Below are positions 1,538 through 15,597 of a stretch of DNA of 54,012 nt, one piece after another. A program made the translations under genes and the position numbers. Below the pieces are notes generated by a model that was not told where the DNA came from, made no database searches, and worked only from the letters and a program-made list of their open reading frames with translations. Each line of letters opens with the position of its first letter. Position 1 is the stretch's first letter. The DNA is from a virus. The stretch is from the UHGV virus genome UHGV-0393070, one strand, 5' to 3'.

Positions 1538-3697
1538 TTAAATCCCCAAAGTGGCGACGATATCCTTCGCAGTCTCACGTGTGCTGCCCTTGCTGGATAT
1601 CGCCCGCCGGGCATCAACATGGTGAAGGGTGAATCCGTGTTGCTCATAAAGTTCAAGCACTCGTGGCGCTGTTGAGTTACTGATAAGAACTTTCGCGCCT
1701 CGCTGGTGGGCTGCTACACAGCTTTCCGCAAGTGAAATCTGATCAGCCCATGAGAAACCGCCTGCGGCGTAGTTTGTGAAGCCTGCGGTGCCGGGCAACG
1801 GCTCATACGGCGGGTCGCAGTAAACCACATCACCTTCACCGGCCAGCGCCAGGGTCCTGTGATATCCAGCATTCAGGAACACGCATTTATGCGACTTCTG
1901 CTTAAAAGCCTTTATCTCAATCTCTGGGAAATAGGGCGCTTCGTACTTGCCCCAGCCAACATTAAAGAAACCATCACGGTTGTAGCGAATCAGGCCGTTA
2001 AAGCAGTGTCGATTGAGGAAGAGAAAGGCTGCTGCGCGCTTCGGCGCGCCCATGCGCTGGTTATTAAACTCATCCCGAAGCTCTTTGTACGCCGCCTCAC
2101 TGTTGGCGCGCTCAAACAATATTTTGGCAAGCGAGCATACTCTGATGTGGTCAACTTCAAGCATCTGATAGAGGTTAATCAGATCTGCATTGACGTCAGC
2201 AAGCAGGAAAGATTCATGTTTTTCGGAGTTGAGAAATACCGAGCCGCCACCAACGAATGGCTCAACGAGGCGTTTACCGGCTGGGATCAGGCGATCCAGT
2301 TCCGGAAGCAGGGAATATTTCCCGCCAGCCCATTTCAGGAACGGGCGCTGCCAGTTGCGCGGTGCAGGCGCTTCGACTGGCAGCTCGGCGGCGATGCGCT
2401 CACCAATCCAGCGCATTACCGGTACTGCCATGCTATTGCCGATAGCTTTGTAGCGCAGCCCGTCTGGGCATTCATCAGCATCCTTCCCGCGCCAGCCGAT
2501 CAGAGTGTGATTATCAGGAAAGCCCTGAAGGCGCTCGCATTCGACAGGTGTAAGGCGACGGACAGCCATTAAGTCGTGAGTTACAGGTATATGGCCACCT
2601 CCAGAGCCCATTGCTTCGGTGAGAGTTGGGCAAATACCTACCTCTATCCCCGCTTTAGGGTGTTGCCCCCCTAAGATTCCAGGCTGAAGAAATAAAGCAT
2701 TTTCCTGCCCGTTATTTCGGCCCAGTGTGTGAGCAAGATTTTTTAAGGTGTCAGGATCTTGTGTTCTATGAACTGATATAACAGCTAGGTCAGTGGCATC
2801 CTTATAATCCCTCGCCTTAACTGTCGATGCAGTCTCATCATCAGCATATTCTCCAAATGCAGTCATTCGATATGCGCCTACAATTCCGCTACCTCTTTGA
2901 CTGAAAATCTCCTGATTACTTTGTCCGATTCCGCCGATGTTATGAGATTGGTTTAGGGTTGGATGTGGGTTTGTTGGGTCATCCCAGTGGCTACCGTTTT
3001 CAGCGCTTTTTCCAGCATTGACGGGAGGTTCCGTTTCCGATGTTCTGCTCGGCGCAGAATCCCGGCGCACGCTGTCGAGCTCAAATAATATTTTTGCAGG
3101 ATCGAATCCGTCACGAGCGCTTGCGACAACAAACACACGGCGGCGTCGTTGGGCCACTCCGAAAAATTGAGCATCAAGGACTCGCCAGGCGATAACCCTT
3201 TCTGGTCCAGACACACAACCTGCGTGCGTCCATTTTCCCCCTGCTGGCTGCAACTCACTGCTTTCTCCGGCAAGTCCTGCCAGAAAGCACCCGAAGGCAT
3301 TGTCTTTGCTGCTGAGCACGCCCGGGACGTTTTCCCAGACGATGATTGATTCTGGTTCACCGCGTTCGCGGCGCTTTGCGTCGATTGCATTGGCTAATTC
3401 CACGTAAGAGAGGGTTAACTGCCCGCGGTCATCAGACAGACCTTCGCGTAAGCCGGCGATGCTGAATGCCTGGCAAGGCGTGCCACCGACCAGAACATCA
3501 GGCGCTTCAACTTCACCAGCGCGTACCGCATCGGCGATTTTGGTCATGTCGCCAAGATTGGTTACTTTCGGCCAGTGATGGGCGAGGACAGCTGAGGGGA
3601 AGGCTTCGATCTCAGAGAACCAGGCAGGTTTCCAGCCAAGAGGTTCCCACGCTTTACTGGCAGCTTCGATGCCGCTGCACACGCTTCCGTATTTCAT
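1538..3697 (-). CDS. Fused DNA methyltransferase: N-terminal C5-cytosine MTase domain plus C-terminal Dam-like N6-adenine MTase domain
   Basis: The N-terminal ~440 aa carry C5-MTase motif I (GSVCSGIEAAS), motif IV (GGTPCQAFSIAG), motif VI (IIVWENVPGVLS) and C-terminal motifs (RRLTPVECERLQGFPD, GNSMAVPV). The C-terminal ~280 aa carry the D12/Dam signatures FLKWAGGK and VVYCDPPY (DPPY catalytic motif). The result is one 719-aa ORF. Confidence 0.85.
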   Translation of the reverse strand: MKYGSVCSGIEAASKAWEPLGWKPAWFSEIEAFPSAVLAHHWPKVTNLGDMTKIADAVRAGEVEAPDVLVGGTPCQAFSIAGLREGLSDDRGQLTLSYVELANAIDAKRRERGEPESIIVWENVPGVLSSKDNAFGCFLAGLAGESSELQPAGGKWTHAGCVSGPERVIAWRVLDAQFFGVAQRRRRVFVVASARDGFDPAKILFELDSVRRDSAPSRTSETEPPVNAGKSAENGSHWDDPTNPHPTLNQSHNIGGIGQSNQEIFSQRGSGIVGAYRMTAFGEYADDETASTVKARDYKDATDLAVISVHRTQDPDTLKNLAHTLGRNNGQENALFLQPGILGGQHPKAGIEVGICPTLTEAMGSGGGHIPVTHDLMAVRRLTPVECERLQGFPDNHTLIGWRGKDADECPDGLRYKAIGNSMAVPVMRWIGERIAAELPVEAPAPRNWQRPFLKWAGGKYSLLPELDRLIPAGKRLVEPFVGGGSVFLNSEKHESFLLADVNADLINLYQMLEVDHIRVCSLAKILFERANSEAAYKELRDEFNNQRMGAPKRAAAFLFLNRHCFNGLIRYNRDGFFNVGWGKYEAPYFPEIEIKAFKQKSHKCVFLNAGYHRTLALAGEGDVVYCDPPYEPLPGTAGFTNYAAGGFSWADQISLAESCVAAHQRGAKVLISNSTAPRVLELYEQHGFTLHHVDARRAISSKGSTRETAKDIVATLGI

Positions 3698-10744: not shown

Positions 10745-10872
10745 AACGTATATCCGGAACTCAAATCGTCATCAATTTTATCGGCAGCAATCCCGGTTGC
10801 ACTTTTTCAGAGATCCGCACCGGAACGGGCCTGGACTCTTCTGTCGGTATCGTTTATGGAGCGTTTTAGCCC
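10741..10872 (+). CDS. Small hypothetical ORF (43 aa) coupled to the P stop
   Basis: MKRISGTQIVINFIGSNPGCTF.. has an ATG overlapping the P TGA (ATGA). It occupies the ren position. Not in the supplied track. Confidence 0.25.
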
Positions 10873-10897
10873 CCGCCCGCCAGTACTGGCGAGGGTT
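10868..10897 (+). terminator. Rho-independent terminator after the replication operon
   Basis: CCCGCCAG-TAC-TGGCGAGGG hairpin followed by TTTTC. Confidence 0.5.
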
Positions 10898-11088
10898 TTC
10901 ATATTTCATGCATGTGCATGAAAACCACTACACAAAGCGGGCAGGCGTGGCGGGGATACGAGCGCGCGCAAGATATTTCAACTGCAAGCAATTTCATGTT
11001 AACGTACACTCATAATTAAGGTCGATTTGAATGACGGCCGGACAGATGCGGCCGTAGTAATTCATATACTAATGACAGTGGATGGATC

Positions 11089-12069
11089 ATGAAGGAATCT
11101 TTTAGCGCTTCATTAATTATTCAAGGTAAGCACAAATTTTACAGCCTAACGTTGCCAATTGATGTTATCGCTGGTTGTTGTTCACCAAACCCTCGTTCTG
11201 AAGATCCACAAGATGGATTTCAACGGAGCTTGGATGAAACAAGGGCAGAGTCGATTGCAAATTATATTATTAACGGTGGGGTAATTCCCTCTAGTATTAT
11301 ATTGTCTGCGCAACCATCTTCTGAGTTTGAATATAATAGTAAAAAGAAGACGTTAAGTTTCAAAAATGATGTAAAATCATTTCTCATTATAGATGGGCAA
11401 CATCGTGCTTATGGGTTTAGAAAACTATATGAACAAGGTTTTGATGATAGGAAATTACGAATTCCTGTAGTGATTTTCTCTGAGCTAAATCCTATAGATG
11501 AAGCAAGATTGTTTATTGATGTTAACACGCTTCAAAAACCTGTCCCAAAAGAATTGCTTTTGGATATAAAGAAATTAGCTGAAACAGAAAATGCAGAAGA
11601 AGAGCTTTTAGACTTAATATTTACTTTGTTTGAAAGCAATTCCACTAGCGCTCTTGCTGGGAAGTTGTCTCGTTTTGAGAAAAAAAGACACTTTATTTCA
11701 AAAGTTACTTTTTATGAGGCATTTAAGCTTATATTGAGGTCTTTCGATATTTCAAGCCCTCAACGCCTGTTTGAGATTGTAAATGCGTATTTATTTGCTG
11801 CACAAGATCTGCTCAACTCTCAGGGAGTTAATTTCGATGAGGTAATCATTAAACCTACTTCCTTCAAAATTCTAGTAGGGCATAGTAAAGCTGTAATTGC
11901 TATGATATTTGACAACTCACCAGAATCTTCGAGTTTAATTAGCGAGCACAAAAAATATCTCAAGCGGAGTCTTAATGGAAATATAGCTACGGTTTTAAAT
12001 AATAGGGCCACAGTAAAAGCAATAGAATTACTAGACAACAAGTTGTTAAAAAGAAATATTGTAATATGA
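11089..12069 (+). CDS. DGQHR-domain protein (DndB-like, ParB/Srx nuclease-fold superfamily)
   Basis: A 326-aa protein carrying the diagnostic IIDGQHRAYG motif and a PVVIF..DVN..QKP region typical of DndB/DGQHR-family proteins. It is visibly AT-rich relative to the phage backbone and is the first gene of a two-gene operon (ATGA overlap with the next gene). Confidence 0.7.
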   Translation: MKESFSASLIIQGKHKFYSLTLPIDVIAGCCSPNPRSEDPQDGFQRSLDETRAESIANYIINGGVIPSSIILSAQPSSEFEYNSKKKTLSFKNDVKSFLIIDGQHRAYGFRKLYEQGFDDRKLRIPVVIFSELNPIDEARLFIDVNTLQKPVPKELLLDIKKLAETENAEEELLDLIFTLFESNSTSALAGKLSRFEKKRHFISKVTFYEAFKLILRSFDISSPQRLFEIVNAYLFAAQDLLNSQGVNFDEVIIKPTSFKILVGHSKAVIAMIFDNSPESSSLISEHKKYLKRSLNGNIATVLNNRATVKAIELLDNKLLKRNIVI

Positions 12070-12998
12070 CAAATCTAGTAAAAATAGAACGTTTGTTTAA
12101 GCAATTAACTTGCCCCTCGATTTTAGGGGCTGGTAAGATTGCACACGGAAGAGCAATTGAAAAGCTGGATGATTTAAATTTTACATTGACAAATGTTGTT
12201 CCACCTCCACACCAAAAGATTTCTCTGCGAATGATTGATTCCAAAGAGTTTGCTTATTATATGGCGGGGGAAGCCAATAGGTTTTTTCTCGCATCAATGG
12301 TATCTTGGAACAGGTCACAGTCTGAAGAAAACGAAAATTTATCATGGCAAGTTGTTGAGCATTATTATTCTGCATATTACGCAGTACATTACCTCATCCG
12401 TATTGCAGGGTTAAGTTTAACAAACGTTGATAAGCCGACATTACGCACTATTCTTAGGTCAAATATGACTGGGAATGTATTTAATAATCTAGAAAGTGGT
12501 CTGAATTTAATGCGCTATGATAGCGCATGCGAAAATATTACTCTTGAAAAAAAAGATAAAAAAGGAGGATCTCATATTGATGCTTGGGCATCATGGGTTT
12601 CTGTTGTGGAACGGCTTATTTTAGAAACTAATGCTGATATTCAAGAATATGCTGAAACAGCAGTTTCCTTATCAGAACATTTAGGTTTTATAAAAAGAGC
12701 AAACGATACATTTAGCCCAACAGTAATAAGAAATGAGGTGAACTATCAATTTTCTAATAACGCTTGGTGTTTTGATGGTTTAACTAAGGAGAAAATAAGG
12801 CGAGTTAGAAAAGTAATTAATGAAAACAGCCTTTTGTTGAGAAATAACGGAGATATGCTTGAAAGTTTAATTTGTAATAATAACCTGATAATCTCATTGG
12901 CAAAGAAAGTATTTAAGTCAGCATCAGAAAATAATTCTAAGAGTATTTGTAGGCTGTTGCTAACTAAATATAAGCAAAAAATACCCACTCTGGTGTGA
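12066..12998 (+). CDS. Hypothetical protein (310 aa), translationally coupled partner of the DGQHR protein
   Basis: Its ATG overlaps the stop of the DGQHR gene, and it shares the same AT-rich composition. I recognise no catalytic motif; the product is Asn/Ser/Leu-rich. Confidence 0.5.
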   Translation: MTNLVKIERLFKQLTCPSILGAGKIAHGRAIEKLDDLNFTLTNVVPPPHQKISLRMIDSKEFAYYMAGEANRFFLASMVSWNRSQSEENENLSWQVVEHYYSAYYAVHYLIRIAGLSLTNVDKPTLRTILRSNMTGNVFNNLESGLNLMRYDSACENITLEKKDKKGGSHIDAWASWVSVVERLILETNADIQEYAETAVSLSEHLGFIKRANDTFSPTVIRNEVNYQFSNNAWCFDGLTKEKIRRVRKVINENSLLLRNNGDMLESLICNNNLIISLAKKVFKSASENNSKSICRLLLTKYKQKIPTLV

Positions 12999-13030
12999 GA
13001 GGGGCAAGCCCTCTCTTTTATTTATTCAAA
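12996..13030. terminator. Bidirectional rho-independent terminator
   Basis: GAGAGGGGCAAGCCCTCTC hairpin followed by TTTTATTTATT. It sits between the convergent 12066..12998 (+) gene and the 13022.. (-) ORF. Confidence 0.6.
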
Positions 13031-13575
13031 ATAATATGTCGAAAAATGTAAGATATCATCACCTAACCAGTCGTTAAATTCTTGTATCCTTTTTTGTAAA
13101 GGGAGTAGTTCGTTACGAACAAATACTTTGCTCGCCTTTTCAATATCGCCAAAACCACCAACATTATTCGGCATAATCCCCATCATCTGCGGTGGTACAC
13201 GATGTGCTGCCTTCATGTCATCCTGGCTCACGTTTTTGATATTCAGAAACTCATCCTTTGCCGCCACCTCTGACAATGGGATGATCTGGATGCTGTCTTT
13301 TTTCCCGTTGGGGGAGTACATAAATAGATTTCGGAGGTTGCCTGGCTCTTTGGCGCTTTCATCGCATGGCGGATGTTGTTCTCGACCTCTTGGTTCTGCG
13401 CGGCATCGGTAATGTACATGAGGAAACCAGCATGGCTGCCGTTTATGTAATACTTCCCTCTGAAAATTCCGTATGCCTGGATACCTGTATGAGTGCAGAT
13501 GTTGGAGAAGGGCATAGACATCCTGGTAGCTAAAGAGTTATTGGACCTAGCTGTTGGTGAAGGAAAGTTGGCCAT
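13022..13575 (-). pseudogene. Remnant of a phage portal protein gene (C-terminal part, frameshifted)
   Basis: Two overlapping minus-strand ORFs in different frames (13243..13575 and 13022..13321) together read like the C-terminal third of a Phage_portal-family protein (..KYYINGSHAGFLMYITDAAQNQEVENNIRHAMK.. / ..PNGKKDSIQIIPLSEVAAKDEFLNIKNVSQDDMKAAHRVPPQMMGIMPNNVGGFGD..). There is no N-terminal part or start context, and the locus is far from the structural module. Confidence 0.5.
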
Positions 13576-14127: not shown

Positions 14128-14385
14128 ATGTCGAATTGGAACATTGCAGCCAAACCGAAAGACGAACAGGACAAGGTTAACGTTGACCTTGCGGCCTCCG
14201 GCGTCGCGTACAAAGAACGACTGAACATGCCGGTCATCGCTGAAGTGGTCGCCAGAGAGCAGCCAGAACACCTGCGCGAATACTTCATGGAGCGCGTCCG
14301 CTACTACCGCGAGCAGAGCATCCAGCTCCCCAAAGCATCCGACCCACGATACATCGAAATGGCAGAATTAAATGCAAGAAAATGA
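14128..14385 (+). CDS. Hypothetical small protein (85 aa)
   Basis: A GC-rich ORF with backbone-like composition, directly after the terminator-like hairpin. Its 3' end overlaps the next gene by 14 nt. Confidence 0.4.
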
Positions 14386-14962
14386 CATCAAGGATCAGCA
14401 GGAATCTGAAATACAGGCTTTCGATTTTTCAAAGGAATTTGACGCTCTGATAAATGCAAAAGGAAAGATTACCACTTCCATGCTAACGGCGGTTAATCGC
14501 TACTTTTTGTACTTTTCTTTCTTTGAGTCTTTGCTTCTTGGGTGCTCTGGAGGGCAAAAGAAAAGTTCTGACTATGCAAAGGCTCTCATGGAAAGAGGGG
14601 TTTATGATGAAAGTATAATTAGATCAACATTTAGCGTGTTTGCAGATAGATACCTTACTGATCGGCGTAGGTATGAGAGTCTTTGTGGTGAAGATAGGCA
14701 TACACGCCCAGATACCAAAGAAAAATATTACGGCGTTATGTGTGCGAAAGCAGATGATCTTGTTACTCAGTTTGAATTATGTTTATTTGTCTGCTTCAGA
14801 CTGCGGAACAATCTTTTCCATGGGCCAAAGTGGAGATATTTCCTTGATGGGCAAGAAGAACTACTCTTGACTGCCGGAACTTTTATACATTCGATTCTTG
14901 ATAAAGCCCCCAGAAGTGAAGAAGGTTGGGAGTTTCAGGATATTTTGTCGCCAACAGAATAG
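14372..14962 (+). CDS. Hypothetical protein with a C-terminal HEPN-like Rx4H motif (196 aa)
   Basis: AT-rich composition. The motif [10 protein letters not shown] (R-x4-H) near the C-terminus matches the HEPN RNase signature style. The overlapping start with the upstream small gene suggests coupling. Confidence 0.35.
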
Positions 14963-15141: not shown

Positions 15142-15597
15142 ATGACTCTGCCAGTAGACGGCATCAAACTCCATCGCGGCAACTTCGCGGCCATAGGCCA
15201 GCAGATTCAGCCGTTGCTGGATGCCGGGCAATGCTTCCGCCTGCAGGTTAAGCCCTGGCGCGAGAAGCGCAGCCTGTCGCAGAATGCGCTCAGTCACATG
15301 TGGTACACGGAAATCAGCGAATACCTGATTAACTCTGGACGTACTGACGCAACCCCTGAGTGGGTTAAACGCAACCTCAAAAAGACCTACCTCGGATGCG
15401 AAGAGGTGACCTACACCGACTTCATCACCGGTGAGAAAACCACCACCTGGGAGCCTCGCCACACTGGCGACCTTGATACCGGTGAAATGCATATCTTCCT
15501 GCTGAAGGTTGAAATGTGGTGCGCTCAGTTCGGTCTGGCCCTGACTATCCCGAACGGTTGTGAATACCAGCAGCTGCGCGATAAGCAGGAGGCATGA
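15142..15597 (+). CDS. ninB: NinB (Orf-family recombination mediator)
   Basis: A 151-aa protein with KRSLSQNALSHMWY.. similar in architecture to lambda NinB (..RNRSLDQNRKLWA..). It is the first gene of the nin region after the island. Confidence 0.8.
   Translation: MTLPVDGIKLHRGNFAAIGQQIQPLLDAGQCFRLQVKPWREKRSLSQNALSHMWYTEISEYLINSGRTDATPEWVKRNLKKTYLGCEEVTYTDFITGEKTTTWEPRHTGDLDTGEMHIFLLKVEMWCAQFGLALTIPNGCEYQQLRDKQEA

Follow-up and report, generated by a model that had tools for sequence, protein, structure and literature searches.

A linked DGQHR gene and HEPN-like partner gene, a candidate anti-phage module brought from a P2-like hotspot into a lambdoid Klebsiella prophage

The virus genome UHGV-0393070, analyzed here as one stretch of 54,012 nucleotides (the window), carries a two-gene cassette that encodes a DGQHR-domain protein (gene 1) and a partner protein from an uncurated family (gene 2). 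The linkage of these genes spans Proteobacteria, Verrucomicrobiota and Firmicutes, and in the window the pair lies inside DNA of a P2-like phage that is embedded in a lambdoid prophage. The pair is a candidate for a mobile module that protects its lysogen from other phages. The features of the locus are as follows; L numbers denote comparison loci.

10849..13457, no strand: P2-like-phage-derived block in the lambdoid O/P-nin region, recognized by blastn collinearity and flanked by lambda O/P and nin genes
10873..10897, + strand: GC-rich hairpin CCCGCCAGTACTGGCGAGGG followed by TTTT (inverted repeat I3), which aligns to the same element in L004, L013, L016 and L017
10944..10962, + strand: fossil P2/186-type cos site GGCGTGGCGGGGATACGAG, which aligns to the annotated cosL of P2 (NC_001895) and 186 (NC_001317)
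10978..11088, + strand: cassette leader, with a promoter-like stretch TTTCAA...TTCATGTTAAC, a hairpin at 11034-11055 and GGATGGA, resembling a ribosome-binding site, before the ATG
11089..12069, + strand: gene 1, DGQHR-domain protein of 326 amino acids, with an N-terminal ParB/Srx fold and a helical C-terminal half (~168-326)
12066..12998, + strand: gene 2, 310-amino-acid partner of an uncurated family, with an HEPN-like helical core and a beta-sheet insertion
12984..13023, both strands: terminator region; on the + strand GAGAGGGGCAAGCCCTCTC then TTTTATTT, on the - strand a hairpin at 12999-12984 then TATTTTTT
13025..13467, - strand: 3' remnant of a P2-type portal gene Q, with truncation and a frameshift (residues ~192-339 of 339, the last ~148 codons)

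The original prediction, made from the DNA letters, described two translationally coupled genes in an AT-rich cassette, and both points are borne out. The two + strand open reading frames (ORFs), 11089-12069 (326 amino acids) and 12066-12998 (310 amino acids), share a 4-nt ATGA overlap, and the GC content is 0.32-0.37 over positions 11000-13000 versus 0.55-0.59 in the upstream O/P genes and from ninB onward. The upstream genes encode Phage_rep_O and Phage_lambda_P, and the downstream genes encode NinE, NinG and Q. An identical metagenomic contig (L002) is annotated in the order KilR, S24 repressor, YdaT-like protein, Phage_rep_O, Phage_lambda_P, the pair and a Phage_portal fragment, continuing with a DNA polymerase III theta homolog, NinE, NinG, YlcG, antiterminator Q and holin.

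The association of the two genes is not particular to this genome. Partner-encoding loci, 42 in all, were gathered by exact look-up and by pattern scans of viral and species-representative genomes, and their ORFs were searched with hidden Markov models (HMMs); a tighter partner alignment used in a genome scan returned 10 loci. A DGQHR ORF lies directly upstream of the partner, on the same strand, in 38 of the 42 loci. Three more retain a frameshifted or truncated DGQHR remnant upstream of an intact partner ORF (L030, 5590-5841; L038, 5029-6004; L040, 271-498), and in the last the upstream side is cut by a contig end. Incidental adjacency, which would have undercut the proposal of a functional pair, is rejected by these 38 intact and 3 decayed DGQHR genes among 41 testable loci, and the partner is therefore co-conserved with the DGQHR gene. 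The linkage persists in a distant subfamily whose partners are 20-28% identical to that of the window, and also in a Firmicutes and a Verrucomicrobiota metagenome-assembled genome. The partners of Limnobacter, Hahella and Noviherbaspirillum are homologous (HHalign probability 100), and the pair has consecutive protein accessions in many Enterobacter, Cronobacter, Citrobacter and Klebsiella genomes. The junction between the genes ranges from -17 to +12 nt in 25 pairs. No constant third gene was found across the 42 loci.

The two genes diverge at different rates. In every comparison to the window proteins gene 1 is much better conserved than gene 2, with respective identities of 88 and 72% in L004, 66 and 41% in L007, 55 and 37% in L037, and 42 and 21% in L028. 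Such rapid evolution of the partner would be in keeping with a part of the module that touches phage factors or determines specificity.

Gene 1 was said to carry an unmistakable DGQHR motif, and this holds at both the motif and the family level. The sequence IIDGQHRAYG is located at residues 99-108, and the protein scores 137.6 bits against TIGR03187 (cut-off 58.85) in a match that spans residues 7-257. A Pfam DndB match of 69 bits covers the N-terminal half only, and the N-terminal domain has the ParB/Srx fold. Neither pocket motif, GFQR (43-46) or DGQHR (102-106), varies across the family, and both are kept in 25 of 25 orthologous pairs. The full-length homologs make up over 1,300 clusters; beta- and gamma-Proteobacteria commonly carry them, with an identity of about 55%.

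Gene 1 shares with DndB, DpdB and DGQHR_dnd_1 the DGQHR domain, the FQR and DGQHR motifs, the ParB/Srx fold and a helical C-terminal half, but it is none of these proteins. It scores 26.6 bits against the DndB equivalog TIGR03233 (cut-off 328), 30.1 bits against the PADLOC DndB model (N-terminal half only), 36 bits against the DpdB model NF041060 (cut-off 300) and 63.9 bits against DGQHR_dnd_1 (cut-off 450). The absence of Dnd and Dpd partners had been noted from the window, and it extends to the wider sample: dndC, dndD and dndE are not beside the pair in the window or in any of the 42 loci, no TGT-like (dpdA/tgt-like) neighbor occurs in any context examined, and no Dnd- or Dpd-like ORF was seen within the window. 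With scores far under the equivalog cut-offs and pathway genes that are not adjacent, membership in the Dnd or Dpd systems is rejected. DNA binding by DndB is modulated by ATP. Both DndB and DpdB serve DNA modification as regulators or helpers, whereas gene 1 is unlinked to a modification enzyme, is never found beside dndCDE, dpdA or a tgt-like gene, and has its own obligate partner. The C-terminus of DndB was called HEPN by Makarova in 2013. The idea that the C-terminal half of gene 1 is a paralog of the partner received no support (HHalign probability 8.6%).

Gene 2 had been described as having no recognizable motif, and here the original prediction must be revised. The family has strong invariant residues, an HEPN-like fold and an R...H/Y motif. 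In a word-seeded search 26 close clusters were recovered, every one labeled "hypothetical", and an exhaustive profile search yielded 569 partner clusters (50% identity, E ≤ 1e-3), nearly all 305-330 amino acids in length. Among 152 full-length representatives, W94, Y100, Y101, H170, W174, R222, Y227 and W234 are invariant, and H108, R112, N223 and N226 are nearly so. The motif centers on R222, which is present in 152/152 and is followed by the conserved N223, N226 and Y227; it is IRNEVNYQF in the window protein and RNxxNYxH in many relatives. R222-N-x-x-N-Y-x-H reads as an HEPN-type Rx6H in 66 of the 152. The histidine at +7 is replaced by F229 in the window clade, whereas H170 never varies.

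Gene 2 has no match in any of the model sets searched (Pfam 2025, NCBIfam, PHROGs and PADLOC 2.0), and 46 diverse relatives have no curated-family match above noise in Pfam or PADLOC. Because the partner has no model in these collections, current annotation tools miss the system. Nothing significant was found when the partner model was compared with the Protein Data Bank (PDB) by Foldseek, and HMM searches of both gene families against PDB sequences gave no matches. None of the 46 members matches PF18737 or another Pfam HEPN model above noise. A GmrD/DUF1524-like identity is rejected for want of sequence or fold support. The partner is HEPN-like and probably a divergent HEPN with a non-canonical center; it is graded HEPN-like and not as a proven member because the Foldseek search of the PDB was empty and there is no sequence tie to a curated HEPN family.

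The origin of this copy is recorded in its flanks, which the earlier reading missed: a P2-type cos site (10944-10962) on one side and the portal Q stub (13025-13467, - strand) on the other. The block from 10849 to 13457, in which a terminator hairpin, cos, the cassette, a terminator and the portal Q stub follow one another, aligns by blastn in one continuous collinear run to the P2-like prophage loci L013, L017 and L034 (73-80% nucleotide identity). Its first element (10873..10897) is a conserved terminator-like hairpin located just upstream of cos in P2-like phages. The cos site is identical to the Fels-2 site. Among 15 P2-type or P2-derived loci, 14 have the cos motif ~85-145 nt ahead of gene 1; in the exception, L014, the block is collinear and an exact match to the motif is absent. 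The portal stub is 59% and 43% identical, in two frames, to the L007 portal by tblastn, is 83% identical to Klebsiella P2-like phage portal genes by blastn, matches Pfam Phage_portal (E = 8.8e-9) and marks the right border of a transplanted hotspot fragment.

The collinearity from cos through the cassette to the truncated Q, together with the cos site and the Q stub, leads to the conclusion that a P2-like fragment entered a lambdoid prophage by recombination and now separates P from the nin genes. This 2.6-kb fragment carried the cassette into a Klebsiella prophage of the lambdoid type, from the hotspot of one phage family to that of another. The location first reported, between P and the nin genes, is correct, but the nin slot is not the immediate origin of the cassette; it came from a P2-like phage, out of the cos-Q hotspot. 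The cluster to which the window copy belongs, at 90% identity or higher, comes from Klebsiella species. With its conserved flanks (10873-10977), the fossil cos could allow a P2-type terminase to act on this lambdoid region. The locus is a clean natural example of cargo passing from the P2 cos-portal hotspot to the lambdoid P-nin hotspot, and its fossil cos and portal stub document how the hotspots of unrelated phage families exchange cargo.

Elsewhere the pair occupies several kinds of sites. Twelve intact P2-like prophages carry it in the order gpA ... cos ... pair ... portal Q, terminase P, and decayed P2-like prophages carry it in L004, L014 and L015. Other surroundings resemble defense islands. 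The pair directly follows a Type I restriction-modification operon in Limnobacter (L009, 1-4869), and it comes after a D12 methylase, a HerA-like ATPase and a 466-amino-acid unknown gene in Hahella (L010, 369-4948), a D12 / PD-Lambda-5_B-like methylase in L041 (4107-4961), and a PbeC-like ABC ATPase with a 243-amino-acid unknown in L039 (957-3760). The lambdoid slot of the window is a further context. The module is typical cargo of the P2-like cos-to-portal hotspot and also lands in chromosomal defense islands; as a conserved operon that recurs in defense islands or prophage hotspots, it has the generic hallmark of a defense system. The partner has no tblastn match in 50k phage records or 72k plasmids. 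As a separate observation, a D12 methylase recurs in 2 of ~20 non-P2 loci, recalling the "ParB + methylase + HEPN" operons noted in 2013.

The pair was originally thought to fall outside the named systems, and the models agree: PADLOC-DB 2.0 gives gene 1 weak DpdB/DndB matches of 30-32 bits and gives gene 2 and 45 diverse relatives none at all. In the literature searched, the pair is neither named nor experimentally tested. P2 hotspots are reservoirs of anti-phage systems (Rousset 2022, PMC9122126). Supplementary file 6 of the same study includes "DndB + hypothetical" in its inventory of what E. coli P2 hotspots contain, as bare entries that are neither named, tested nor analyzed. These entries, given as accessions, share with the pair both the domain description and the P2-like hotspot slot, and they probably represent the same module or a sister. 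The cassette is missing from 5,426 complete E. coli genomes searched with megablast and at blastn-distant sensitivity.

Established systems offer partial precedents. In GmrSD and SspE, DUF262 domains link the sensing of NTP and DNA to a nuclease (PMC4619093), and a DndB-like ParB-fold protein binds ATP and GTP (PMC12704722). GmrSD, BrxU and SspE (DUF262 NTPase plus DUF1524 nuclease) resemble the pair in joining a ParB-fold NTP-dependent sensor domain to a nuclease-type effector, in occurring as a fusion or two adjacent genes, in residing on mobile elements and in acting as stand-alone defense. The pair does not contain the DUF262 DGQQR domain and DUF1524 His-Me nuclease domain that together define the GmrSD type. 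HEPN domains are typically metal-independent RNases of abortive infection and toxin-antitoxin systems, and they occur in fusions and operons with ParB-fold genes (PMC3710099, PMC3632139). The HEPN_MAE_28990/RiboL-PSP-HEPN operons (Anantharaman et al. 2013), which are computationally predicted conflict systems in hotspots of defense and mobile genetic elements and sometimes include a DNA methylase, likewise place a ParB-fold gene next to an HEPN gene. So does a Vibrio "DUF262 + DUF262/DndB + HEPN_MAE_28990" locus that Table S6 of PMC9122126 files under Type IV restriction by domain content. Because the Rousset 2022 entries list such combinations, the ParB-fold plus HEPN theme is already known from comparative genomics. 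HEPN_MAE_28990 has a canonical Rx4H, whereas the partner described here belongs to a different family with a variable canonical histidine and an invariant H170. As far as can be told, the specific module is new in its obligate pairing, its uncurated partner family, its non-canonical center and its wide distribution.

It is reasonable to propose, with a probability of about 0.55, that the pair works as a two-gene module of its own, autonomous and horizontally mobile, and that its most likely role is to protect the lysogen from other phages. A counter-defense role is less likely. Domain identities, linkage and contexts were observed directly; from them we infer the following mechanism. The DGQHR protein would act as an NTP-gated DNA-binding switch or sensor, comparable to DndB, DpdB and the DUF262 domains of GmrSD, BrxU and SspE, and would form a complex with its partner, which could explain the translational coupling of the genes. 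Upon recognition of invading DNA, the DGQHR protein may license the HEPN-like partner for RNA cleavage, with the invariant R222, H170 and Y227 serving as a putative non-canonical HEPN center. Cleavage of RNA would then halt the infection by abortive infection or growth arrest. A more specific version is offered tentatively, as a possibility that is more doubtful than the defense role itself. It holds that the pair may be a widespread unnamed anti-phage system (at least 569 partner clusters, Proteobacteria to Firmicutes). In this version an NTP switch with the ParB fold would monitor DNA and license a new HEPN-like family, in which the catalytic histidine would have shifted to a different helix (H170 with R222 and Y227). 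Such a system would couple DNA sensing to RNA cleavage and would move between unrelated temperate-phage families together with its own hotspot borders.

Several observations weigh against the proposed defense module and its mechanism. The candidate defense role is drawn from genomic context, and some loci are chromosomal islets amid housekeeping genes (Aeromonas L005; L011; L035). Either protein may be the sensor or the effector. ParB-fold proteins can themselves be nucleases or NTP-degrading enzymes. The partner reaches no curated HEPN family by sequence, with 1 of 46 relatives matching PF05168 at E = 0.035, and membership in HEPN_MAE_28990 is rejected at the sequence level, with an HHalign probability of 0.05 to the Vibrio protein. 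The window clade has F229 in place of the canonical HEPN histidine, and over half of the family lacks this histidine, which makes RNase activity of the partner uncertain.

The same two proteins could be arranged differently. In one alternative the target is DNA and not RNA: the pair would be a Type IV-like, modification-dependent restriction system, a split analog of GmrS/GmrD in which the DGQHR protein recognizes modified phage DNA and either cuts or nicks it itself or brings in the partner as a DNase. DGQHR and DUF262 are sister clades with common FQR and DG(Q)(H/Q)R motifs, and GmrSD exists as a fusion or as two separate proteins (PMC4619093). ParB/Srx proteins can be DNases, and ParB-fold proteins more broadly can be nucleases or NTP-degrading effectors (PMC10853773), and a DUF262/DndB plus HEPN operon is classed as "Type-IV restriction" in Table S6 of Rousset. 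Neither protein matches the PADLOC GmrSD-type models, and restriction of modified DNA is considered unlikely here. It is less probable still that the pair is a toxin-antitoxin or addiction module, in which an HEPN-like toxin neutralized by the DGQHR protein would stabilize the mobile element and phage exclusion would be no more than a by-product. Two genes that are small, overlap, are transcribed together and travel on mobile elements are what such a module would look like, and HEPN toxins commonly have an upstream neutralizer (PMC3710099). At ~310-326 amino acids, however, the proteins are large for a toxin-antitoxin pair, and the canonical catalytic histidine is often absent from the partner. 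In the decayed copies at L030, L038 and L040, an intact partner beside a broken DGQHR gene argues that the partner is not a constitutively lethal toxin in need of neutralization, although the same loss would fit an inactive or attenuated one.

The remaining alternative, that the pair assists or regulates a Dnd, Dpd, Pbe or methylase-type modification pathway encoded elsewhere, or is a phage counter-defense device, is regarded as the most improbable of those considered. The nearest named relatives of gene 1 are DndB, DpdB and DGQHR_dnd_1, a few loci adjoin a D12 methylase (L010, L041) or a PbeC-like ABC ATPase (L039), and the survey of HEPN proteins notes operons of ParB, methylase and HEPN genes. 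Against this, the scores to those relatives fall far below the equivalog cut-offs, the 42 loci share no constant third gene, and the window has no visible Dnd- or Dpd-like ORF. The pair moreover stands alone between cos and Q in the P2 hotspots and between housekeeping genes in the Aeromonas islet.

If the proposed defense module is validated, it would be a compact two-gene addition to the defense catalog. The "orphan" DGQHR/DndB-like branch (>1,300 clusters) would gain a function independent of phosphorothioation or deazaguanine modification, and HEPN-like proteins would become a second effector type for ParB-fold NTP switches, beside the His-Me nucleases of GmrSD and SspE.

The signals that surround the genes vary in quality. 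A sigma70-like promoter had been assigned to the cassette, and the elements TGCAAG-16-TACACT are present (10983-11010), but they match the consensus at 2/6 and 4/6 positions, below the scan threshold. Promoter-like sites are not enriched in the region (8 versus 8.1 expected from shuffled sequence). A stretch around TTCATGnTAA upstream of the cassette is conserved in independent contexts in an alignment of upstream regions, and judged from sequence the leader may have promoter function. The palindrome reported upstream is real: an inverted repeat (11034-11040/11049-11055) with 7-nt arms and an 8-nt loop. This hairpin, ACGGCCG ... CGGCCGT, lies between the promoter-like stretch and the ribosome-binding site, has a similar form in L013 and may be a regulatory or processing element. 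The bidirectional terminator proposed downstream is likewise present, as a + strand hairpin at 12997-13015 with a T-run and a - strand hairpin at 12999-12984 with a T-run. Terminator-like sites were found 9 times versus 1.4 expected.

Neighboring ORFs provided additional observations. The gene labeled ninB (15142-15597, + strand) is in a position that fits the name, with NinE and NinG coming after it; the label is not secured by its Pfam NinB match (E = 0.14, 12.4 bits versus a cut-off of 23.8), and the product may belong to the NinB/Orf family as a diverged member. The P-nin slot holds another AT-rich orphan ORF (14372-14962, + strand; 196 amino acids, GC ~0.39) with an Rx4H motif that looks like a canonical HEPN one. 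Neither Pfam nor PADLOC gave a match for this ORF, nor did tblastn among 50k phage records, and it may be another small defense or toxin gene. At a distance of 9 kb from the cassette, a 719-amino-acid ORF (1538-3697, - strand) has a weak 37-residue match (E = 0.003) to the N-terminal motif region of D12-class DNA methyltransferases and may be a prophage methylase fusion. Finally, the nin region encodes a homolog of the DNA polymerase III theta subunit (14128-14385, + strand; HolE-like, PF06440, E = 2e-35).

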